59,036 bases of DNA from Candidatus Binatota bacterium (GCA_034666665.1 JAXDLK010000005.1:1-59036), one strand, 5' to 3'; counted from the stretch's first letter, positions 34,924-47,112 are shown. Notes: a model not told the origin generated them from the letters alone. A program made the numbers and translations.

Positions 34924-37280
34924 CCGGGTGGCACCCCCGCACCGGCAGCCAAGAAGCGCGGTCGCAGTGCCACCAACAGCGCCGGCAGCAGGGTCACGCT
35001 CGCGAGGAAGCTCACCACCATCCAGATCGCCAGCAGGAACCCCATCTCGGCGTTGAAGCGGATCTCCGAAAACCCCCAGAAGAGGATGCCGGCCACCATG
35101 GTGATCGCGGTGAAGGTGACGGTCTTGCCCGCGGTGCGGAGCGCTTCGAGCACCGCCTTGTCGATCGAGCCCGCGCGGGCGAGCTCCTCCTGTGCCCGGC
35201 TGACGACGTAGAACGCGAAGTCGATGCCGAACCCGATGCCGACCGTGACGACGGGGAGCGTGTGCACGTTGATACCGATCCCCCGCGCCCCCATGTAGGC
35301 GTTCACCGTCGCGTTGGCGATCACCAGCGGCGCCACCATCAGGATCGCACCGACGATCGATCGGTAGGTGATCGCGACGATCAGCAGGATCGTGATGTAG
35401 CCGAGGGCGTTCAGCAGTACGTCGTTCTTGACGAGCTCCTCGTTCGCCGCGGCCAGGACGCCGATCAGTCCGCCGGCGAGACGGAACTGCGCCTTTTCGA
35501 GGGGATGCCCGGCGACGAACTCCTTCGCGTGGGCGATCGCTTGCCGGATGGTGTCGCCCCTGTGGTCCTTGCAGTAGAAGAAGACCGCCGTCTTGGTGAA
35601 GTCGGCGTCCATGAACCGGGCGGTCTCCTGGTACGACGTGCCCATGAAGTAGGCTCCGAAGAGCATGCTCACCATCCCCGGGCTGGTGGGGATCACCGCC
35701 CACTTCGGCTCGTACTCGTGGATCGCCATCGCCATCGTCACGATCACGTCGGCGAAGGAGAAGCTGGCGCCGACGCCCGGGTCCTTCTCCATGAAGCGCT
35801 GGAACTCGCTGATCGTCTTGACGTTCTGCGGTATGCGGACGGCACCGGGCGTGGACGCTTCGACGACGACGATCAGCGGCTCGACGCCGCCGAAGGTGTC
35901 CTGGATCCGCCGGTGTGCCTCGTTGTACTTCGACCCGTGCGGGAGAAGCGGAGTCACCGCCTCGGAGTCTCCGACTTTGACCTGCGTCCAGAGCACGACG
36001 CTCACCAGGAAGACCGCGGCCCAGGCGGCGAACACGACCGTGCGACCGGTCCGTGAGACGATCGCGGGTGCGATCGCATCGACGATCCGCTGGAAGATAC
36101 CGCGTGGCCGGGCTTCGACGATCTCGCGATCGGGCGGCGCGAGCAGCGAGTAGATCACCGGGTTCAGCAACAGCTCGCTGACGACGATCGCCGCGATCCA
36201 GAAGGACGCGCTGATCGCGAGCTTCTGCAAGAGCACGATCGGCACGAGCAGGATCGCGAGCACCCCGAGGGCGTCGGTGATGATCCCCGACAGCGTCGGC
36301 ACGAAGAGCGCGGCGAAGGAGCGGACGATCGCGTCCTCCTGGTTCCAGTTCGAATCGCGGTACTCCTCGTAATACCGGTCGTGCATCTGCGCCGAATGGC
36401 TGACGGCGCGGGCGGTGATGAAGAAGGGAATCACCAAGGTCAGCGGATCGAGCGTGAAGCCGATCAGCTTGATGAAACCGAGGCCCCAGATCGCCGCCAC
36501 CGTGCCGGAGAGCGTCGGTCGGAGCGCGCCCCGCCAGTCGCGGAAGTAGACGTAGAGGAGGATCCAGGCGACCGCCAGCGTCGCCGCCAGGATCCAGTAC
36601 GCCTGGGATGCGTAATAGTAGACCCAGCCGTACAGCTCGGGCTCGCCGGCGATCACGATGTCGTGCGTGTCGTCCTCGAACGCGCGCACGACCTTCGTGC
36701 GGATGTCGTTGAATAGCCGCCGGTGGTCGAGGCGGCCCTCGATGAAGCTCGCGCGGATCAACGCCGCGCGGTCGTCGAGCGACACCAGAACGCCGTAGAG
36801 GTTCTGCGACGTGTGCACGATCCGGCGGACGCGCCGTACGTCCTCGTCCGTCTTCGGTCCGCGGTCCATCACGGGCTGCATCTCCATGAGCCCGCCGGCG
36901 CCGATCCGCAGCGTGCGGTTCGTGCGGTGCGCGATGGATTCGATCTGGTAGTGGTTGACGCCGTAGATCGTGTCGAGGACCTGCGTCATGTTGAAGATCT
37001 TGTTCAGCGTCGGCAGGTCGAAGATCGTGCCGGACTTCGACTCGATCAGGATCAGGATCGTGTTCGCGCCGCCGAAGGTCTTCGCGTACTTCGTGTGAGT
37101 CTGCACGAACGGATGATCGGTCGGCAGGATCTCGTCGAAACGGCTCATCATCCGGAGCCCGGCGGTGTGGTACGCGAAGAAGGCCGTCACCGCGAGCACG
37201 GACACGAGGACCGTCGAGCGCCACCGGATCAGCCAACGGCCGAACCGGACGAGACGATCGCTTTCCGCAGGTGCGCTCAT
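34920..37280 (-). CDS. RND-superfamily transporter, COG1033/MMPL/HpnN-like (786 aa)
   Basis: Only the C-terminal 786 codons of the 1706-aa track ORF look real. ATG 37280 (MSAPAESDRLVRFGRWLIRW) overlaps the upstream stop (ATGA). It has two 6-TM bundles with two periplasmic loops. Confidence 0.88.
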   Translation of the reverse strand: MSAPAESDRLVRFGRWLIRWRSTVLVSVLAVTAFFAYHTAGLRMMSRFDEILPTDHPFVQTHTKYAKTFGGANTILILIESKSGTIFDLPTLNKIFNMTQVLDTIYGVNHYQIESIAHRTNRTLRIGAGGLMEMQPVMDRGPKTDEDVRRVRRIVHTSQNLYGVLVSLDDRAALIRASFIEGRLDHRRLFNDIRTKVVRAFEDDTHDIVIAGEPELYGWVYYYASQAYWILAATLAVAWILLYVYFRDWRGALRPTLSGTVAAIWGLGFIKLIGFTLDPLTLVIPFFITARAVSHSAQMHDRYYEEYRDSNWNQEDAIVRSFAALFVPTLSGIITDALGVLAILLVPIVLLQKLAISASFWIAAIVVSELLLNPVIYSLLAPPDREIVEARPRGIFQRIVDAIAPAIVSRTGRTVVFAAWAAVFLVSVVLWTQVKVGDSEAVTPLLPHGSKYNEAHRRIQDTFGGVEPLIVVVEASTPGAVRIPQNVKTISEFQRFMEKDPGVGASFSFADVIVTMAMAIHEYEPKWAVIPTSPGMVSMLFGAYFMGTSYQETARFMDADFTKTAVFFYCKDHRGDTIRQAIAHAKEFVAGHPLEKAQFRLAGGLIGVLAAANEELVKNDVLLNALGYITILLIVAITYRSIVGAILMVAPLVIANATVNAYMGARGIGINVHTLPVVTVGIGFGIDFAFYVVSRAQEELARAGSIDKAVLEALRTAGKTVTFTAITMVAGILFWGFSEIRFNAEMGFLLAIWMVVSFLASVTLLPALLVALRPRFLAAGAGVPPG

Positions 37281-40123
37281 CGTTCCTCCATCTCTCGCTC
37301 GATCCGCGAACGCGCTTCGGGAAGCGCAGGGTTCGCGGGGTCGAGCGCTTCGAGGCGCCGGACCGTCTCGATCGCTTCCCGGTACCGCTGCGCGCGCTCG
37401 TAGGCATACGCCAGGTTCGACAGATACGCGAAGTTGTCCGGTCGTTCGGTCGCGGCCCGTTCGAGGTACGGGATCGCGTCCGGGAATCGCTCGACCCGCA
37501 GCAACGCGGCCCCGAGCAGCTGGTTCAGGAAATGGTCCGTCGGCTGGATCTCCTGAGCATACGAAGCGAAGCGGATCGTCCGCTCCGGATCGGGTCCGCC
37601 GAGGAGGGTCCGGTAGTCGCTCCCGAGGAACCTCAGGAACCGGCCGCGGAGCTCGGTGAGCAACACGCCGACGTCCGCGTCCCGCGGGTTCAGCCGCCGC
37701 GCGCTTTCCAGGTCCTGAAGGGCCGCGAACGCGGAATCGACGGACGGATCGACGGCGCGGAGCTTGGCATCGAAGAGCTTCCGGCGCGCGGTGAAGACGG
37801 TCTCCGGCAGCCGGGTGGCCCGCGAAAGCGCGGCACCGTCCATGCCCTTCGCGAGGATCTCGAGGTCCATGCGGAAGGTGTTCGGCACCGCGATCCGGTT
37901 GAGCTCCGCGAACTCGACCGAAGCACGGTCGTCCGTCAGGAGCTCGGCACCGCCGCTCAGGCGATCGACGCCGCCGTCGGCGGCGACGACGTATCGGAGC
38001 ACGTCCTCGCCGCGCTCGACGCCCACCGACGCCAGGTCGGCGGCGACTTCCGGCCGCTGCCGCATGCGCGCATCGATCGCCGCGGGATCGACGTCGAGCG
38101 GGGTGAGCGAGCCGATCAGGACCGAGTAGCGCTCGACGAAGAGGACGAGCACGTGGGGAAATGCCGATCGGAACGTCTTCAGCGAGGCGACGAAGTCGGA
38201 CGCCACCATGTTGTGGAGCGGCAGCCACTGGGCGAAGATCCCGCCCGGCGCGAGCTTCGACGAAACGATCCCGTAATACTCCCGCGTGTAGAGCGGCCAG
38301 CTCTCGCCGGCCGCCGGATGCGTCGCGTCCGCCGTGATGACGTCGTAGCGCTCCGTGGTCATGCGCAGGTAGTTGCGGCCGTCGTCGTGGATCAGGCGCC
38401 AGTCCGAGCGCGCCGCCGCGTTGCCGTTCTCCTTGGCGAAGAGCGCCATGGCGTCGCGGACTTCCGGGACCAGCTCGACCGCTTCGACCGTGACGGGATG
38501 CCGCAGCACCGCACCGAGCGTGATGCCGCCGCCGAGCGCGTTCACCAGCACGCGCTGGGGGTGCGGGTGGAGGAGGAGCGGCGTATGGCCGAGCAGCTTG
38601 AAGAGCAGCAGGGCGTCGCGATGGTTCGGCACTTCCTCGATGCAGTTGATCAGGAGGTCGCGCCGATCCCCTACCTGGAAGACGGAGATCGTCCCGAAGG
38701 CGCCCTCGCGGTAATAGAGGAGATCCCCGCGGACGCCTTCGTGTCCGTCGTACCACCGCGTGAGCGTGAGCGGCTCGGCGACGACGAGCGCGATCACGGC
38801 GGCGCCCGCCAGTGGAGCGGCTCCGAGGACGAGCTCGCGGAAGTTCCGCCGGAGCACCACGAGCACGATGACCGCGGTGACGGCGGCGAGCAGGCCCATC
38901 GCGACGAGCGACCGCCCGATGCCGATTCCCGGAATCAGCCCGAAGCCTGCCGTGAGCGCGCCGGCGACGCTGCCGATCGAGTCCGCGGCGAAGACGGTGG
39001 AGACCGCGGGCGCCGCGTCCTCGTCCGCCTCGGATCGGAGTAAGTCGACGAGCAGCGGCAGCAGAAACGCACCCGCCGCCGCCGCGGGGCCGACCGGGAG
39101 GATCGCCACCAGCAGTCGCACGAGGAGGAGGTCGGCCGGCCCGTCGATGACGATGACGTCCGAGAGAGCGCGTGCGACGTCGTAGAGTCGGTTGAGGAGC
39201 GGGATCGACGCGGCGACGTACACGCAGAGGAAGATCTCCACCGCCACGAAGAGCCGAAGGCGGCCGCCGTGCGACACGATCCGTCGGGCGATCGATGCGT
39301 AGAGCCAGGCTCCCACGGCCGATCCGAGAAGCACCGAGGCGAGGATGAGGGAGAACGAGGTGGTGTTGTTCTCGACGACGCAGACGAGCGTGCGGTTCCA
39401 GACCACCTGCAGAGCCATGGTCTGGAAGCCGGCGAGGAACGCCGCGACGCCGAGCGCGAATGCGACCCGGCCGGCACGCGCGCGGGCGGGCACCGGCGAC
39501 GTCTCGATCGCCGGCTCCGCCCTCCCGCGTGATGCGAGGGCCAGTGCCCCGAGGGCCGCCGCGAGGTTCACCGCCACCGCGACGCCGGCACTGGTCGCCG
39601 CTCCGAACCAGCGGATCAGGTACCAGGCGGTCGCGAGCGTACCGACGACGCCGCCGGTGGTATTCGCGGCGAAGAGTCCGGCCGCGGCTTGTCCCGCCGT
39701 ACCCCCCGTCGAGAGAGCGCGCGCGACGACCGGGAGCGTGAGCCCCATGAGGATCGTCGGGGGGAGAAGAGCCGCGAATGCGAGCACCGCGCGCACGGCG
39801 ATCGATCCGCCGGAAGCGACGTACGCCGCGTCCACCGCCGCGTGAACGGCCGGGAACGCGAGGGCGTAGACGGCAACGGCCGCCTCGGCCGCGGCATACA
39901 CGCGGAGCGCCCGGAACCGGGCGAGGCGCGGAGAGCGCCCGAGCGCATAGCCGAGCGACAGTCCGGCCATGAACGCCGCGGTGACCACCGCCACGGAGTA
40001 CGTGGAGACGCCGAAGGACAGCCGGAGCGCTCGCTCCCACAGCACTTCGTAGGCGAGCGCGGAAAACCCGGACAGCAGGAAGAGAGCTTGTACCGCCGCG
40101 CGCTCGAGGCTCGGAGTGGGCAC
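37277..40123 (-). CDS. Membrane-fused spermidine-synthase-like (PABS fold) protein with C-terminal TPR repeats
   Basis: The N-terminus LFLLSGFSALAYEVLWERAL plus ~10 TM helices is typical of fused MFS/spermidine-synthase proteins. The Rossmann region reads VLVNALGGGITLG...YDVITADATHP. The C-terminal TPR region reads AYLSNLAYAYERAQRYREAI. Confidence 0.85.
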   Translation of the reverse strand: MPTPSLERAAVQALFLLSGFSALAYEVLWERALRLSFGVSTYSVAVVTAAFMAGLSLGYALGRSPRLARFRALRVYAAAEAAVAVYALAFPAVHAAVDAAYVASGGSIAVRAVLAFAALLPPTILMGLTLPVVARALSTGGTAGQAAAGLFAANTTGGVVGTLATAWYLIRWFGAATSAGVAVAVNLAAALGALALASRGRAEPAIETSPVPARARAGRVAFALGVAAFLAGFQTMALQVVWNRTLVCVVENNTTSFSLILASVLLGSAVGAWLYASIARRIVSHGGRLRLFVAVEIFLCVYVAASIPLLNRLYDVARALSDVIVIDGPADLLLVRLLVAILPVGPAAAAGAFLLPLLVDLLRSEADEDAAPAVSTVFAADSIGSVAGALTAGFGLIPGIGIGRSLVAMGLLAAVTAVIVLVVLRRNFRELVLGAAPLAGAAVIALVVAEPLTLTRWYDGHEGVRGDLLYYREGAFGTISVFQVGDRRDLLINCIEEVPNHRDALLLFKLLGHTPLLLHPHPQRVLVNALGGGITLGAVLRHPVTVEAVELVPEVRDAMALFAKENGNAAARSDWRLIHDDGRNYLRMTTERYDVITADATHPAAGESWPLYTREYYGIVSSKLAPGGIFAQWLPLHNMVASDFVASLKTFRSAFPHVLVLFVERYSVLIGSLTPLDVDPAAIDARMRQRPEVAADLASVGVERGEDVLRYVVAADGGVDRLSGGAELLTDDRASVEFAELNRIAVPNTFRMDLEILAKGMDGAALSRATRLPETVFTARRKLFDAKLRAVDPSVDSAFAALQDLESARRLNPRDADVGVLLTELRGRFLRFLGSDYRTLLGGPDPERTIRFASYAQEIQPTDHFLNQLLGAALLRVERFPDAIPYLERAATERPDNFAYLSNLAYAYERAQRYREAIETVRRLEALDPANPALPEARSRIEREMEER

Positions 40124-41075: not shown

Positions 41076-41453
41076 ATGGCTAAGGAAGAAACGGCAGCGG
41101 GCCAACAGGAACTCCAGGAGGCGGTCTGGCAGTACACGGGATGGGGTGTGCTGCTCGCCCTCGTCCTCGCATCGGGCACGGTGATCGGGTACCTGCTGTG
41201 GGGCGATGCGCCGAACCTCCGCACGCAGCTTCAAGAGGCGAGTCAGAAGATTCAGGCGGTCCGGTCGGAGCGCGAGAACCTGAATTACGAGATCAGTCGT
41301 TTGAAGCGAGCCAACGAGAAGCTGCAACGAGACCTCGACGCCGCAAAGACGGCTTCGCCTCCTGCGGACGGAGGAGCCGCTGCCGCCACGGGTGGCGCGC
41401 CCGCGGCTGGTGGAGCGCCCGCGACGGGCGGAGCACCCGCCGCCGGTCACTAG
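41076..41453 (+). CDS. Bitopic membrane protein with a coiled coil and a Gly/Ala/Pro-rich tail
   Basis: The TM helix is WGVLLALVLASGTVIGYLLWG. A heptad-rich segment reads LRTQLQEASQKIQAVRSERENLNYEISRLKRANEKLQRDL. Three in-frame 18-nt repeats (41391-41444) encode GGAPAA-type hexapeptides. Confidence 0.6.
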   Translation: MAKEETAAGQQELQEAVWQYTGWGVLLALVLASGTVIGYLLWGDAPNLRTQLQEASQKIQAVRSERENLNYEISRLKRANEKLQRDLDAAKTASPPADGGAAAATGGAPAAGGAPATGGAPAAGH

Positions 41454-41673: not shown

Positions 41674-42912
41674 ATGGGACAGAAACCCTTCGAAAGTAAT
41701 CGTTCCAGCCCCGAACGCAGCGCTGCCAACTGGTATCCCTGGCTTCGTCGCGGCCGCTTCCGCACCAGCGTCGCGTACCTGGTCTCGCTCGCCATCCACG
41801 CCGGAATCTTTCTTCTCCTGCTTGCCACCGTCGTGCTCGATGGTGGCGGCGGTCCAGGCGACAGTTACGGCGGTGAGGGCAAGCTGTTCTCGCTCCTCTC
41901 CGGCCATGGACGGCTCGACTATCAGACCGAGCGGATGGAGAAGTCCGACTCGCTCCACGAGGAGATCGCCAAGGCGGTTCAGCAGGTCGAGCCGTTGCCG
42001 GAGGTCACCAACGAAGAGGTCGTTCCGGAGATCGCCGAGGAGGGGGTGAAGCTCGCCGCCGTGGCCCCCCGGATCAACACCGTTCCGCAGGCCGCTTCGA
42101 GCATGCGCAACATGGCGCCGGCGTCGACCGGCGGCGGCATGGCGCTCGGACCGGGCGTGGGTGCCGGCGGCGGGCTCGGTGGAGGCATCGGCCGCGGATT
42201 CGGGCGCGGATTCGGCGACTTCGTCGGCCTCCTGCAGAAGTGGGGATTCGACGCGGTCTTCGTGATCGATGCGACGAACAGCATGGAGTTTGCGATCTCC
42301 GCCGTTCGCGGCCGCATCGCGGATCTGGTCGGTGACATCCAGCAGCTGGTGCCGAATGCCCGGGTCGGCCTCGTCGTCTACAAGGACAAGGGTGAGGACT
42401 TCGTCGTGCGGAAGTCCGACCTCTCGTTTCGATTGGAGAAGCTCCGCGCGTTCGTATCCAGCGTCGAGACCAGCGGCGGCGGCGACTACGAGGAGGGAGT
42501 GCTCGACGGTTTGCGCACGGCGGTTCAGGAGATCACGTGGCGGCAGTACGCTCATCGGGTGATCGTCCTGGTGCCGAGCTCGCCGCCGCGCCGTGACGAA
42601 ATGCCGGAGATCGAGAGCCTCGTCACCGGATTCCACTCGAAGGGCGGGATGCTCCACGTGATCGACCTCGCGGATCTGATGCACGTGAACTTCGAGCGCG
42701 AGTTCGAGAAGCGCATGTACGGAAAGGAACCGGAGAAGATCACGGCTCTGCCGGACTTCTATCGCGACATGCAGACGTTCTTCACCAGGCTGGCGGGCGA
42801 GGGCGGCGGCCAGATGATCGCGCTCCAGAGCAAGCAAGCGATCACGGAGCAGCTGCTGATCGCGGCCTTCGGACCTCGCTGGAAGGCCGAGGTCGCGAAG
42901 CTGTCCAAATGA
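41674..42912 (+). CDS. Membrane-anchored VWA domain protein with a TonB/TolA-like SxxxH anchor
   Basis: GGAAGG precedes the ATG. The N-terminal TM is YPWLRRGRFRTSVAYLVSLAIHAGIFLLLLATVV (compare E. coli TonB RRFPWPTLLSVCIHGAVV). The VWA core reads AVFVIDATNSM...VGLVVYKDKG...SGGGDYEEG. Confidence 0.8.
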   Translation: MGQKPFESNRSSPERSAANWYPWLRRGRFRTSVAYLVSLAIHAGIFLLLLATVVLDGGGGPGDSYGGEGKLFSLLSGHGRLDYQTERMEKSDSLHEEIAKAVQQVEPLPEVTNEEVVPEIAEEGVKLAAVAPRINTVPQAASSMRNMAPASTGGGMALGPGVGAGGGLGGGIGRGFGRGFGDFVGLLQKWGFDAVFVIDATNSMEFAISAVRGRIADLVGDIQQLVPNARVGLVVYKDKGEDFVVRKSDLSFRLEKLRAFVSSVETSGGGDYEEGVLDGLRTAVQEITWRQYAHRVIVLVPSSPPRRDEMPEIESLVTGFHSKGGMLHVIDLADLMHVNFEREFEKRMYGKEPEKITALPDFYRDMQTFFTRLAGEGGGQMIALQSKQAITEQLLIAAFGPRWKAEVAKLSK

Positions 42913-42979
42913 CCGCGAGGCTCTGCGAGTGAACGCCAAGCTCTGCAAATGAGCGCGAAGCTCTGCAAATGAAGCGGAT
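42900..42979 (+). repeat. Four tandem 20-bp units spanning the VWA stop and the TPR start
   Basis: The units are gctgtccaaatgaccgcgag, gctctgcgagtgaacgccaa, gctctgcaaatgagcgcgaa and gctctgcaaatgaagcggat. They generate three 7-codon mini-ORFs, each overlapping its neighbour by ATGA or GTGA: 42909-42932 MTARLCE, 42929-42952 VNAKLCK and 42949-42972 MSAKLCK. Confidence 0.9.
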
Positions 42980-45290
42980 CCTTCGGTTCGTCGCGCTGCT
43001 GCTGTTTCCCACCATGGTCTCGGCAGCGACCCTCGCCGAGGTCTCCGGCGGCGTCGACCGCGCCGTACGCGGCGGCATGTCCGAGGCGGAGGAACAGTCG
43101 CTCCTCGGCAGCCTGGGTACGATCTCGGCGGAGGTCGCGGATCGCTACGATGCCTGGACGCGCAGTGGAAGCTCGGAGAGCCGCGGCGCGGCCACCGGTC
43201 TCGCCGACGCGCTACTCCCGGTCTTGGAGCGCCTGCACCGGTACCATCAGGACGCGATCGATCGGATGCAGAACGCGATCATCGCCGTCGATGGCAATCC
43301 CGAAGTCCTCTACGGACAGCGAGAGTGGCAGGTGCATCGAGGGTTCGCGCTCGCGTCCATGGGGCAGCTGGCCTGGCTCTACTATCGCTGCGCGATGCTT
43401 CACCCCGAGAAGAAGGAAGCGCGGAACGATTGGCTCCGCCGCGCGGTCGAGGGCTTCGGCGACTTCATCTTCGCCGAAGATCCGCGCTTGCGGGACGAGA
43501 GTCTCCTCGGGCGGGCGCTGGCGGAGCGCGAGCTCGGAGAGTGGGACCCGGCGAAGAACGATCTCCGTGCGGTGATCGAGCGCGGCAAGGGAGGACCGCT
43601 CTACTGGGCCGCGCGCGTGACGCTCGCCGAGGTCGCCGTCGCCGCGGGTGGGCCAGGGGCGCTGACCGAGACCGAGAACCTGCTTCGCGAGGCCGGCGGC
43701 GGATCCCTCGACACCATCCAGCAAGCGCGGTTCCTGCGCTTTCAGGCGCTGTCGGAAGCCGCCCGTCGCGGGGGTGGCGAGGGGCTCCGTCGCGAGGCCC
43801 GCGGTCTCGCCGCCGCGCTCGCCGAGGGAGGCCCGGTCTGGTCGAAGCGCGTCCAGGAGGTCGCGATGGGAGCGCACCGGGACCCGCGCGAGGTCCTCGG
43901 CGACAGCGCTCCGGCGGAATGGCAGGCGGCGGAGAACTTCGCGAGCGAGGACAAGCTCCGCGAGGCGGCGCCGCTCTACGAGCGCGTGCTCAAGAGCCCG
44001 GACCGGCAGCACGCCACGCTCGCACATCAGCGGCTCGGGGTCTGCTATTTCCGTCTCGGCCGGTTCGCCGATGCGGAGCGCGAGTTCCGGACGTTCCTGA
44101 ACGCGGCGCCCCGTTCGGCGCTCGCATCCGAGGCTTCGTTCCTGCGCTTCCGCGCCGCCGAGGGCGTGTACCGTGGCCGTCCGACGAAGGAGACGCGCGA
44201 GCTCTTCCGCGGCGCCGTGCAAGCGTTCGTGCAGGCATACCCAAAGCACGAGAGCGCCCACGAGGCGTTCTACCGCTGGGGCGAGCTGCTGCAGGCCGAC
44301 CGTCGCTGGCAGGAAGCGGCCGACGCGTACGCGCGCGTCCGGGGCGCACCGGTATTCGAGCTCCGCGCGGCGGCGTCGGAAGTCCAGTGCCTCGCCGAGG
44401 CGATGGTGGCGCCGGCGAAGGACGCAAAGCCCGAATGGTTCGAGCGCACGAGACGGCGCGCGCGAGAGGCCTTCTCCCGCTTTCAGAAGCTCGCCGCGCG
44501 CGCGCCGAAGGACGAGTCGATGCCGGACCTTCGCGCTCGTGCGACGCTGTCGAGCGCGATGGTGGAGGTGAGCGGTCCCGGAGGACGTCCGGAGCCGGCG
44601 GTCCAGGCGCTCGGAGGATTCGAGAAGACGTATCCGACGGCGAAGGACCTGCATCCGCTCGCCGGCGCGCTGCGGCTCTCCGCGCTGAACCAGCTCGGCC
44701 GTCTCGAGGAAGCGGAGACGAACCTCCCCGTGTGGTTGGCGAGCGTCGACGGAGCACGCCCGGAGATCAGCGAGAAGCTCGCGACGGCGTTCCTCCATAC
44801 CTCGATCGACTCCGCGCCGGACGACGCCGCGAAGAGCAGGCGCTGGGCGGTCTTGGCGTCGCGGGTCTTCGACCGACTGAAAGCAGAGGGCCGGCCGCTG
44901 CCCGCCGAGGCGAAGCCGGTGCTGGCGCCGATCTACACCGAGGAAGGCCGGCTCGCGGAGGCGGCGCAGCTCTACCGGGAGCTGCTCGCCACCACGCCAT
45001 CCTCGAAGTCCCTGCTGCGCAGTGCGGCGATGGTGGCGGACCAGCTCGGTGCCTTCGCGGAAGCTGCGGATTACTGGACGCGGCTGGCGAAACGCCAGGA
45101 GGTGGCTTCTCCCATCTGGTACGACGCGCGGCTGAACGGTGCCCGCGCGCTCTTTCGCGCGGGCAACAAGCAACGGGCGTGCGCAGAGATCCGTGAGGTG
45201 AACGCCTTCCGGCCCGACCTCCGCGATGCGGCGACGCGGACGAAGTACGATCAACTCGCCGCTCAGACGTGCGGTCCGGCGGCCTGCTGA
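42969..45290 (+). CDS. Secreted TPR-repeat protein (773 aa)
   Basis: The signal peptide is MKRILRFVALLLFPTMVSA. The body is all-helical and Ala/Leu/Arg/Glu-rich with recurring TPR-like W/Y..A...Y..L patterns. Confidence 0.8.
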   Translation: MKRILRFVALLLFPTMVSAATLAEVSGGVDRAVRGGMSEAEEQSLLGSLGTISAEVADRYDAWTRSGSSESRGAATGLADALLPVLERLHRYHQDAIDRMQNAIIAVDGNPEVLYGQREWQVHRGFALASMGQLAWLYYRCAMLHPEKKEARNDWLRRAVEGFGDFIFAEDPRLRDESLLGRALAERELGEWDPAKNDLRAVIERGKGGPLYWAARVTLAEVAVAAGGPGALTETENLLREAGGGSLDTIQQARFLRFQALSEAARRGGGEGLRREARGLAAALAEGGPVWSKRVQEVAMGAHRDPREVLGDSAPAEWQAAENFASEDKLREAAPLYERVLKSPDRQHATLAHQRLGVCYFRLGRFADAEREFRTFLNAAPRSALASEASFLRFRAAEGVYRGRPTKETRELFRGAVQAFVQAYPKHESAHEAFYRWGELLQADRRWQEAADAYARVRGAPVFELRAAASEVQCLAEAMVAPAKDAKPEWFERTRRRAREAFSRFQKLAARAPKDESMPDLRARATLSSAMVEVSGPGGRPEPAVQALGGFEKTYPTAKDLHPLAGALRLSALNQLGRLEEAETNLPVWLASVDGARPEISEKLATAFLHTSIDSAPDDAAKSRRWAVLASRVFDRLKAEGRPLPAEAKPVLAPIYTEEGRLAEAAQLYRELLATTPSSKSLLRSAAMVADQLGAFAEAADYWTRLAKRQEVASPIWYDARLNGARALFRAGNKQRACAEIREVNAFRPDLRDAATRTKYDQLAAQTCGPAAC

Positions 45291-45340: not shown

Positions 45341-45994
45341 ATGGAAGTGGCTGGAACTTTGAGCGTGATGGATCTGATCCGCCAGGGCTGGTACGCGACG
45401 TACCCGCTGATCGGCTTCTCGGTGATCATGATGAGCATCGTGATCGAACGCATGTGGGCGCTCAGCCGCATCGGCCCCGGGGTCGAGCGGCTGACCGGCG
45501 AGGTCGTGGACCTGCTGCAGAAGGGCGACATCTCCGGGACCACGACGCTGCTCGAAGGGCGGCGGCGGCGGACGCCGGCCTCGCGCATGTACGCCGCGAT
45601 CGTGCCTCTGCTCGGCCGCGGGCCCCTCGACGAGGTGCTCGAGCTCGGCGAGCGGCGCCGGCTGGACGAGAGCCGCTGGTTCCGCCGCAACATCTGGGTG
45701 CTCGGAACGATCGCAGCTTCGGCGCCGTTCATCGGTCTCTTCGGCACGGTGGTCGGCATCATCAAATCGTTCCACCAGATGGCGGTGATGGGTACCGGCG
45801 GGTTCTCCGTGGTCGCCGCCGGCATCTCCGAAGCGCTGGTCGCGACCGCGCTCGGACTGATCGTCGCGATCGTCGCGGTGATCTTCTACAATTATCTCCA
45901 GGTGAAGGTCGGCAATCTCGACACCACGATGCGCGTCGGATTGGGCCAGGTGGTCGAGGCTGCCACCCTCGGGGGCGTACATGGCGCTCGGTAA
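45341..45994 (+). CDS. exbB: MotA/TolQ/ExbB proton-channel family protein
   Basis: GAGGGAGGA precedes ATG 45341. Motifs seen: GTIAASAPFIGLFGTVVGII and GISEALVATALGLIVAIVAVIFYNYL. Confidence 0.9.
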   Translation: MEVAGTLSVMDLIRQGWYATYPLIGFSVIMMSIVIERMWALSRIGPGVERLTGEVVDLLQKGDISGTTTLLEGRRRRTPASRMYAAIVPLLGRGPLDEVLELGERRRLDESRWFRRNIWVLGTIAASAPFIGLFGTVVGIIKSFHQMAVMGTGGFSVVAAGISEALVATALGLIVAIVAVIFYNYLQVKVGNLDTTMRVGLGQVVEAATLGGVHGAR

Positions 45995-46460
45995 GCTCGG
46001 CGGCGGTGACGGCGGCGAAGGCGCCGACGTCATGGCCGAGATCAACATCACGCCGCTCACCGACATCTTCCTGGTGCTGCTGATCATCTTCATGATCACG
46101 CAGTCGGCGCTGGTGGAGTCGGCCGCGAAGGTGAACCTGCCGAAAGCCACGCAGACCACGCAGGAATCCCGCGGCGTCACCGTGACCGTGACCAAGGACG
46201 AACGCATCTTCGTGAACCAGCTTCCCGTCGACGAGGCGCAGCTCCAGGGCACGTTGCAGGACCTGCTCGCCGACGATCCCCGGAAGCTCGTGATCCTCCA
46301 GGGGGACCGTTCCGTCATGCTCGGCGAGGCCGTCCGCCTGATGGACATCGCCAAGCGCGCCGGGGCGCAGGCGATCTCGATTTCGGCGGAGAAGGAAGAG
46401 TCCCCCGCCGGCTCCGCACCGGCCGTGCCCTCGGCCGCGCCGGCCGCGCCGGCGCAGTGA
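45981..46460 (+). CDS. exbD: ExbD/TolR biopolymer transport protein
   Basis: EINITPLTDIFLVLLIIFMI carries the conserved TM Asp. It overlaps exbB by 14 nt. Confidence 0.9.
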   Translation: MALGKLGGGDGGEGADVMAEINITPLTDIFLVLLIIFMITQSALVESAAKVNLPKATQTTQESRGVTVTVTKDERIFVNQLPVDEAQLQGTLQDLLADDPRKLVILQGDRSVMLGEAVRLMDIAKRAGAQAISISAEKEESPAGSAPAVPSAAPAAPAQ

Positions 46461-46461
46461 C

Positions 46462-47112
46462 GTGGACACCGCCCTCGACCTGATCCTCCATCTCGACCAC
46501 CACCTCGTCGCGCTGACACAGGCGGCCGGTGCGTGGACGTACGTGATTCTCTTTGCCATCGTCTTCTGCGAGACCGGCCTCGTGGTGACGCCGTTCCTTC
46601 CCGGCGATTCGCTGCTGTTCACGGTCGGGGCGATCGCGGCGAGCGGCGGCCTCGATCCGGCGGCTGCCGCCGTGCTGCTCGCCATCGCCGCGATCACGGG
46701 CGACTCGGTGAACTACTGGATCGGGAATGTCGTGGGCCCGCGGGTCTTCCGCCAGGAGGACTCGCGCTGGCTCGACCGGCGGCACCTCGACCGCACGCGC
46801 GAGTTCTTCGAGCGCTACGGCGCGAAGACCATCGTCATCGCCCGGTTCGTGCCGATCGTGCGAACGTTCGCGCCGTTCGTCGCGGGGATCGGCCGCATGG
46901 CGTACCGCCGGTTCTTCTTCTACAACGTCGCGGGCGGGATCGCCTGGGTCGGCGGGCTGGTCGGCGCCGGCTACTGGTTCGGCAATCTGCCGGCCGTGCG
47001 AGAGAATTTCTCGCTGGTGATCCTGATGATCATCGTGCTGTCGATCCTCCCGGCGATCGTCGAAGCTCTCCGCACACGCGTGCGGCCGCCTCGCCCGGCC
47101 GCGGGAGTTTGA
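46462..47112 (+). CDS. dedA: DedA family (VTT domain) membrane protein
   Basis: The GTG start lies 1 nt after the exbD stop. Motifs seen: FCETGLVVTPFLPGDSLLF, GAKTIVIARFVPIVRTFAPFVAG and YRRFFFYNVAGGIAW. Confidence 0.88.
   Translation: MDTALDLILHLDHHLVALTQAAGAWTYVILFAIVFCETGLVVTPFLPGDSLLFTVGAIAASGGLDPAAAAVLLAIAAITGDSVNYWIGNVVGPRVFRQEDSRWLDRRHLDRTREFFERYGAKTIVIARFVPIVRTFAPFVAGIGRMAYRRFFFYNVAGGIAWVGGLVGAGYWFGNLPAVRENFSLVILMIIVLSILPAIVEALRTRVRPPRPAAGV

Follow-up and report, generated by a model that had tools for sequence, protein, structure and literature searches.

How does an operon junction cope when copies of the junction itself accumulate between its two genes? This question is raised by a locus of a Candidatus Binatota bacterium (GCA_034666665.1), where a tandem repeat of 20-nt units occupies the interval between the stop codon of a gene encoding a VWA-domain membrane protein and the start codon of a gene encoding a secreted TPR protein. 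The locus was analysed within a window of 59,036 nt (JAXDLK010000005.1:1-59036), the whole stretch of DNA considered here, from whose first letter all positions are counted. The VWA gene, the array, the TPR gene and the genes for ExbB and ExbD are co-oriented, all of them on the plus strand.

41076-41453, + strand: gene for a small coiled-coil protein, upstream of the VWA gene
41674..42912, + strand: gene for the VWA-domain membrane protein, 412 aa (Pfam VWA_4/VWA_2/VWA; orthologues 403-413 aa)
42969..45290, + strand: gene for the secreted TPR protein, 773 aa, starting MKRILRF (exact protein also on a Logan contig)
45341-45994, + strand: ExbB gene, downstream operon context (Pfam)
45981-46460, + strand: ExbD gene, downstream operon context (Pfam)
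46462-47112, + strand: gene for a VTT/DedA protein, downstream context (Pfam; gene calls on contigs L034 and L022)

Structure and arithmetic of the array

The VWA gene closes with AAG CTG TCC AAA TGA, and the last 17 nt together with the stop make up the first repeat unit. On the other side of the junction, the TPR N-terminus, MKRILRFVALLLFPTMVSA-A, resembles a signal peptide and aligns with the N-termini of the orthologues. As the TPR frame contains a TGA at 42930 and thereafter no ATG, GTG or TTG before 42969, ATG 42969 is the first possible TPR start. TRF reports the tandem array at 42894-42973 with a period of 20, 4.0 copies, 78 % matches and zero indels, scoring 90 at period 20 and 111 at period 40, while all other loci of the window score at most 74. 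That value belongs to the small coiled-coil ORF, which contains 3.2 tandem copies of an 18-nt unit that keeps the reading frame (41383-41440; TRF score 74). The following units were delimited by TRF and unit alignment.

42894..42913, + strand: repeat unit 1, CGCGAAGCTGTCCAAATGAC, with the VWA tail AKLSK and stop, and ATGA at 42909-42912
42914..42933, + strand: repeat unit 2, CGCGAGGCTCTGCGAGTGAA, with GTGA at 42929-42932
42934..42953, + strand: repeat unit 3, CGCCAAGCTCTGCAAATGAG, with ATGA at 42949-42952
42954..42973, + strand: repeat unit 4, CGCGAAGCTCTGCAAATGAA, identical to the consensus, with ATGA at 42969-42972 bearing the TPR start

Three mini-ORFs lie between the two genes.

42909..42932, + strand: mini-ORF 1, MTARLCE and stop, 7 codons; ATG 42909 overlaps the VWA stop, TGA at 42930-42932
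42929..42952, + strand: mini-ORF 2, VNAKLCK and stop, 7 codons; GTG start at 42929, TGA at 42950-42952
42949..42972, + strand: mini-ORF 3, MSAKLCK and stop, 7 codons; ATG at 42949, TGA at 42970-42972 overlapping the TPR start

Four 20-nt units, A/GTGA junctions and three 7-codon mini-ORFs leading from the VWA stop to the TPR start had been described in the original prediction; all of this is read directly from the sequence, and TRF agrees. Every link is a −4 overlap of the form NTGA (ATGA 42909, GTGA 42929, ATGA 42949, ATGA 42969). We propose no function for the mini-peptides themselves.

Relative to the consensus, units 1, 2, 3 and 4 carry 3, 3, 2 and 0 mismatches, eight in total, and any two units differ at 2-6 of the 20 positions. 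All starts and stops survive these eight substitutions, one of which changes an ATG to a GTG. Unit 1 has the Ser codon TCC, with a serine that matches the AKLS/AKFS tails of some relatives, and units 2-4 have CTCTGC in common. The shared CTCTGC suggests, as far as the alignment of the units can tell, either that the first duplicate diverged and was then expanded, or that unit 1 changed later under the coding constraint of VWA.

The chain of mini-ORFs can be understood from the period alone. If an ATG begins at position p of a unit, the TGA of the next unit begins at p+1, which at a period of 20 is 21 nt further on and always in frame. Any duplication of an ATGA junction by 3n+2 nucleotides thus yields an unbroken mini-ORF chain as long as no stop appears inside a unit. 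The mini-ORFs chained in this way are an automatic by-product of the duplication, not a design feature in their own right. Each frame also receives one TGA from the three extra units, which precludes read-through both from VWA and from the old 5′ extension of the TPR frame described below. When eight random substitutions were introduced into the array in 200,000 simulations, 16 % of the trials left the chain unbroken, or 28 % if the stop of VWA and the start of TPR were protected, so the intact starts and stops do not exceed random expectation and give no indication of selection on the relay.

Origin from an overlapping gene pair

The orthologues next closest to the VWA protein are only 66 % identical. 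About 100 orthologous VWA tails end in W(R/K)KEV(E/A)KF(A/S)xGx followed by the stop, and the repeat is absent from them. Comparison of orthologous loci, which the original prediction had called for, was carried out at eight junctions (57-66 % aa identity) from five same-family genomes and three metagenome contigs, including L022:7170-7215, L004, L003, L002, L005, L025 and L026. None of the eight has the array; VWA-TPR synteny is kept in all of them, and the two genes overlap instead, by 4-40 nt. Gene callers put the TPR start of the relatives on a 4-nt TTGA or ATGA overlap.

The relatives show some further features at this junction. Their TPR frame is open in 8/8 cases back to a GTG or ATG about 40 nt upstream, formed by the TG of a VWA Trp codon and the base before it, which would correspond to a 40-nt overlap, and gene callers disagree on the start, choosing either the TTGA overlap or the ATG at −40. 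A conserved AAGGAGGT lies within the VWA 'KEV' codons, 7 nt before an in-frame ATT.

A remnant of the longer frame is discernible in the window.

42879..42908, + strand: LEGRGREAVQ, relic of an ancestral TPR frame that extended further 5′ (frame comparison with the eight relatives, empty-site model)

At 42879 the window has CTG where the relatives have GTG or ATG at the VWA Trp codon. The frame starting there reads LEGRGREAVQ-MTARLCE and stop, and is closed thereafter, TGA 42930 cutting the relic off from TPR. In an empty-site model, in which 60 nt are taken out of the window, the sequence is LEGRGREAVQMKRILRFVALLL... and runs collinear with (M)EKGGREIRCGTLIPFLLL... of the relatives, and the restored frame LEGRGREAVQMKRILRFVALLLFPTMVSAATLAEVSGGVDRAV is collinear within one residue with their (M)EKGGREIRCGTLIPFLLLAIGLCAPAANAVSLSDLSEQVNRAV. 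Since removal of 60 nt restores collinearity and the relatives overlap at this place, the array appears as a 60-nt insertion into a former overlap junction; as every copy contains ATGA or GTGA, the duplicated junction would already have had a −4 overlap. Judged from these alignments, the array is derived and lineage-specific. The origin proposed for it at the outset, slipped duplication of an ATGA-type VWA/TPR junction, is supported by the examined orthologues, which do not contain the 60 nt.

We also asked how unusual the array is within its own genome. Chains of three NTGA-linked ORFs of at most 15 codons occur nine times on both strands of the 3.6-Mb genome, so a chain alone is not rare, and that of the array is the only periodic one placed exactly between two real genes. 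We further collected 111 co-directional junctions between long high-GC3 ORFs that are bridged by at least one mini-ORF with −4/−1 overlaps, a set in which gene starts are only crudely defined. When successive link points are aligned, 12-15 of 18 positions match in the array, against 8/18 as the mode of the background; this signature of duplication is seen at 1 of these 111 junctions, that of the array itself. Many of the 111 bridged junctions have 10-31-nt spacers. When up to three mismatches are allowed, the unit matches nothing in the genome beyond its four local copies and two chance-level hits inside ORFs. One 19-mer, CGTGAAGCTCTGCACATGA at C353:816-834 (L031), has two mismatches to the unit and lies inside a 594-aa ORF reading ...YREALHMSRL..., and we judge this match to be due to chance. 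A dispersed repeat family was consequently rejected, the unit being found at one locus only; this confinement, together with the sole duplication signature, argues for a local duplication and not a mobile element. Neither do tandem repeats straddling stop codons show an excess of 3n+2 periods, with 17, 5 and 8 arrays for a period modulo 3 of 0, 1 and 2, respectively. A genome-wide habit of junction duplication was rejected on these two counts (1/111 junctions, no 3n+2 excess), and the array is a one-off event in this genome.

Outside the window, the genome contains a dispersed REP-like element, consisting of a CCCTCTCCC...GGGAGAGGG hairpin followed by 1-3 CCGGGTGAGGG units of 16-17 nt, for example at C7:8392, C143:335-380, C285:5833-5850 and C365:13489-13523. 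The genome has 56 occurrences of its 11-mer, often close to the end of a contig and never in the window, and the GTGA motifs of the element also give chance-like mini-ORF chains.

Reality and stability of the array

The source assembly is a fragmented metagenome-assembled genome (3.63 Mb, 387 contigs, 84 % complete), which by itself would favour an assembly artefact, a possibility that the original prediction had named as one that would refute it. We consider it extremely improbable. The copies are imperfect and lie mid-contig in a 59-kb contig, and assemblies of other data by JGI and Logan recovered the identical array with SNPs in its flanks. By exact-protein look-up, a 99 %-identical VWA was found on the JGI metagenome contig L027 (3300044808), which shares 99.66 % identity with the window over 5.3 kb at 18 SNPs; the Logan contig L034 (SRR24887415) bears the exact TPR protein and is 99.8 % identical over 3.6 kb at 7 SNPs. 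The same four units are present letter for letter in the window, L027 and L034 (n=3 assemblies). An assembly artefact is excluded as far as assemblies can show.

Copy-number variation was not seen among the three assemblies, and of the SNPs separating them 0 fall into the 80-nt array, where only about 0.3 would be expected. Exact and degenerate scans of the metagenome collection, which apparently holds no near-identical records, did not find the array, and relatives with 1-3 copies were sought in the protein collection, which has none between 99 % and 66 % identity.

The same comparison showed that L027 (at about 520) is without 58 nt that are present at 38677-38734 of the window, in a minus-strand ORF (37277-40123). 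The loss frameshifts a 948-aa polytopic ORF, for which gene callers give products of 181 aa and 464 aa on L027, and represents either strain-level pseudogenisation or an error of the L027 assembly.

Initiation signals and nucleic-acid elements

No SD-like motif lies within 20 nt of ATG 42969. The position profile of SD motifs in this genome peaks at −15 to −8, and only about 32 % of its unambiguous ATG starts have an SD-like motif in that range. The TPR AUG is predicted to stand in an unpaired A-rich loop, AAAUGAA, with and without the 60-nt insert, and the predicted local accessibility of the start is 0.42 with the 60 nt and 0.46 without. De novo initiation of TPR at 42969 is therefore credible, SD-less starts being common and the AUG lying in a predicted loop.

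Within the array, an A-to-G change private to unit 2 creates GAGG at 42917-42920, 8 nt before GTG 42929, the only well-placed SD-like motif there, which could admit some ribosomes to the chain independently of VWA. Another motif precedes the array.

42889..42892, + strand: GAGG, a weak SD-like motif within the 'AEV' codons of VWA, 16 nt before ATG 42909 (AAGGAGGT in relatives)

At the level of RNA and DNA, the array folds no better than its shuffles (z = −0.89), matches nothing in Rfam at E<=1, and has no sigma-70-like promoter and no terminator-like site. A structured RNA or leader-peptide attenuator was rejected in view of the fold z-score, the missing Rfam match and the lack of a terminator-like site. 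A cysteine-sensing leader was likewise rejected: each mini-ORF has one UGC, but there is no codon run, attenuator structure or link to the function of the operon.

Proposed mechanism and competing explanations

Our best explanation, in which we place about as much belief as doubt, is a fixed slipped duplication that has been tolerated since coupling was preserved and whose effect is neutral to mildly attenuating. Replication slippage or unequal exchange would have produced three extra tandem copies of the 20-nt junction, now slightly diverged. A ribosome ending VWA would then be handed on through four NTGA termination-reinitiation events to TPR at 42969, and it is to this self-repairing chain of overlaps that the insertion presumably owes its tolerance. 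Some loss at each step would probably make translation of TPR mildly weaker than that of VWA. Both the passage of ribosomes along the chain and the size of its effect are inferred.

From the overlap conserved in relatives, VWA and TPR would seem to be coupled in translation. In reporters of native gene pairs, a spacer of some 14 nt costs 40-80 % of the coupling, which with spacers of 22-38 nt is lost or 80-100 % lower (PMC10666635), and as coupling collapses over that range, an untranslated spacer of 56 nt would be expected to uncouple VWA and TPR. For reinitiation, the final 15 nt of the gene upstream are enough (PMC10666635). Each −4 overlap in the array is preceded by a copy of the original 16-nt upstream context, and since a unit covers about 15 upstream nucleotides, each 20-nt unit reproduces the context found to be sufficient. 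Several points count against the relay: the 7-codon ORFs are shorter than a ribosome footprint, and four consecutive terminations might shed most ribosomes. The low share of SD-like starts and the predicted unpaired loop at the TPR AUG count against its being necessary. On balance, both relay function and attenuation of TPR appear plausible from the sequence.

The main rival to a tolerated, coupling-preserving duplication is a neutral scar in which ribosomes start TPR de novo at ATG 42969 of the polycistronic mRNA and translation of the mini-ORFs is slight or without relevance, an account we regard as possible though rather doubtful. An intact chain is simply how an ATGA junction appears when it has recently been duplicated by 3n+2, its intactness not being significant, two thirds of the starts in this genome manage without SD, the TPR AUG lies in the predicted loop, and the phenomenon is seen at no other junction in the genome. 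Against such independent initiation, the overlap kept by the relatives suggests that coupling matters for this pair, a ribosome terminating at 42910-42912 sits on an AUG so that some reinitiation is hard to avoid, and the array is unchanged in three populations. At the opposite end stands the idea of a selected attenuator or ratio-setter, in which fractional passage through four steps lowers the TPR:VWA ratio and the copy number tunes it over evolutionary time. The geometry permits this, coupling efficiency in reporters is below 100 % and depends on context (PMC10666635), and the GAGG gained by unit 2 could be an extra entry point; yet the substitution pattern shows no sign of selection, the array is unique to one lineage while about 100 orthologues manage without it, and the three assemblies show no differences in copy number. 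We therefore consider selection for attenuation unlikely. An evolvable 'rheostat', in which the number of junction copies sets the TPR:VWA stoichiometry of an ExbBD-associated envelope module and the GAGG of unit 2 serves as a VWA-independent entry, seems to us similarly improbable.

Two further readings were considered. The original prediction had also suggested a contingency-like, copy-number-variable spacer, in which frequent slippage would switch or modulate TPR within populations. It is backed by the tandem-repeat architecture only and by the precedent of the senX3-regX3 MIRU arrays, which do vary between strains (PMC4213456). This part of the prediction did not hold up well and is, in our view, very improbable: imperfect units (78 % matches, with the pairwise differences given above) suppress slippage, exactly four identical copies are found in 3/3 assemblies, and a change in copy number shifts the reading frame of neither gene, any number of copies keeping both genes and the relay, hence no on/off switch. 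Little also speaks for a DNA- or RNA-level element such as a structured RNA, an internal promoter or direct repeats that bind protein in the manner of iterons or operators. Such an element would be in keeping with four direct repeats spaced by 20 bp, and promoter activity has been reported for the MIRU-containing senX3-regX3 spacer (PMC4213456). Set against this are the absence of a sigma-70-like promoter or terminator at the array, its unremarkable fold and missing Rfam match, the occurrence of the motif elsewhere in the genome only as chance-level hits inside ORFs, and the fact that the first copy is simply the coding tail of VWA, and we accordingly deem an element of this kind highly unlikely.

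Comparison with known systems

Among described systems, the mycobacterial MIRU comes closest to the array, which works in a similar way without being a MIRU itself. According to the summary of Supply et al. 1997 in PMC12548453, MIRUs form tandem units of 77 and 53 bp between senX3 and regX3, and their small ORFs are coupled to the neighbouring genes at −4 spacing, an arrangement believed to keep the effects of the insertion small (PMC12548453). The unit composition of the senX3-regX3 MIRUs differs between strains (PMC4213456). In both systems, tandem units of the same orientation lie between co-oriented genes of an operon, and the small ORF of a unit overlaps the neighbouring stop and start at −4 spacing, so that translation can pass the insert. 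MIRUs, however, constitute a dispersed, apparently mobile family at many loci with units of 40-100 bp and a copy number that varies between strains, whereas the Binatota unit occupies one locus, measures 20 nt, duplicates the very junction at which it lies and is present in four copies in three assemblies (n=3).

With regard to NTGA coupling (Huber et al. 2019, 2023: PMC6728339, PMC10666635), the four junctions of the array are canonical −4 overlaps. The known cases join two real genes directly, whereas the array interposes three 7-codon ORFs that have no coding role themselves. Short ORFs that bring ribosomes to a coupled downstream gene are also known from uORF delivery (PMC12548453, section 11).

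The locus offers a natural example of the way in which an operon junction could take up an insertion and still keep its coupling, each overlap being rebuilt by the 3n+2 ATGA copies. If the relay works, it would provide a minimal 20-nt module to test the efficiency of serial termination-reinitiation and the passage of ribosomes by 7-codon ORFs. Short leader ORFs have reportedly been put to use in the bicistronic-design expression cassettes of Mutalik et al. from 2013. As in the array, a non-functional short ORF ends there on the start codon of the expressed gene; such leaders have their own SD at the 5′ end of the mRNA, whereas the ORFs of the array are serial, internal and fed by VWA. Taken alone, the array is a curiosity of a single lineage and a small variant of the type of scar known from the mycobacterial MIRU repeats.
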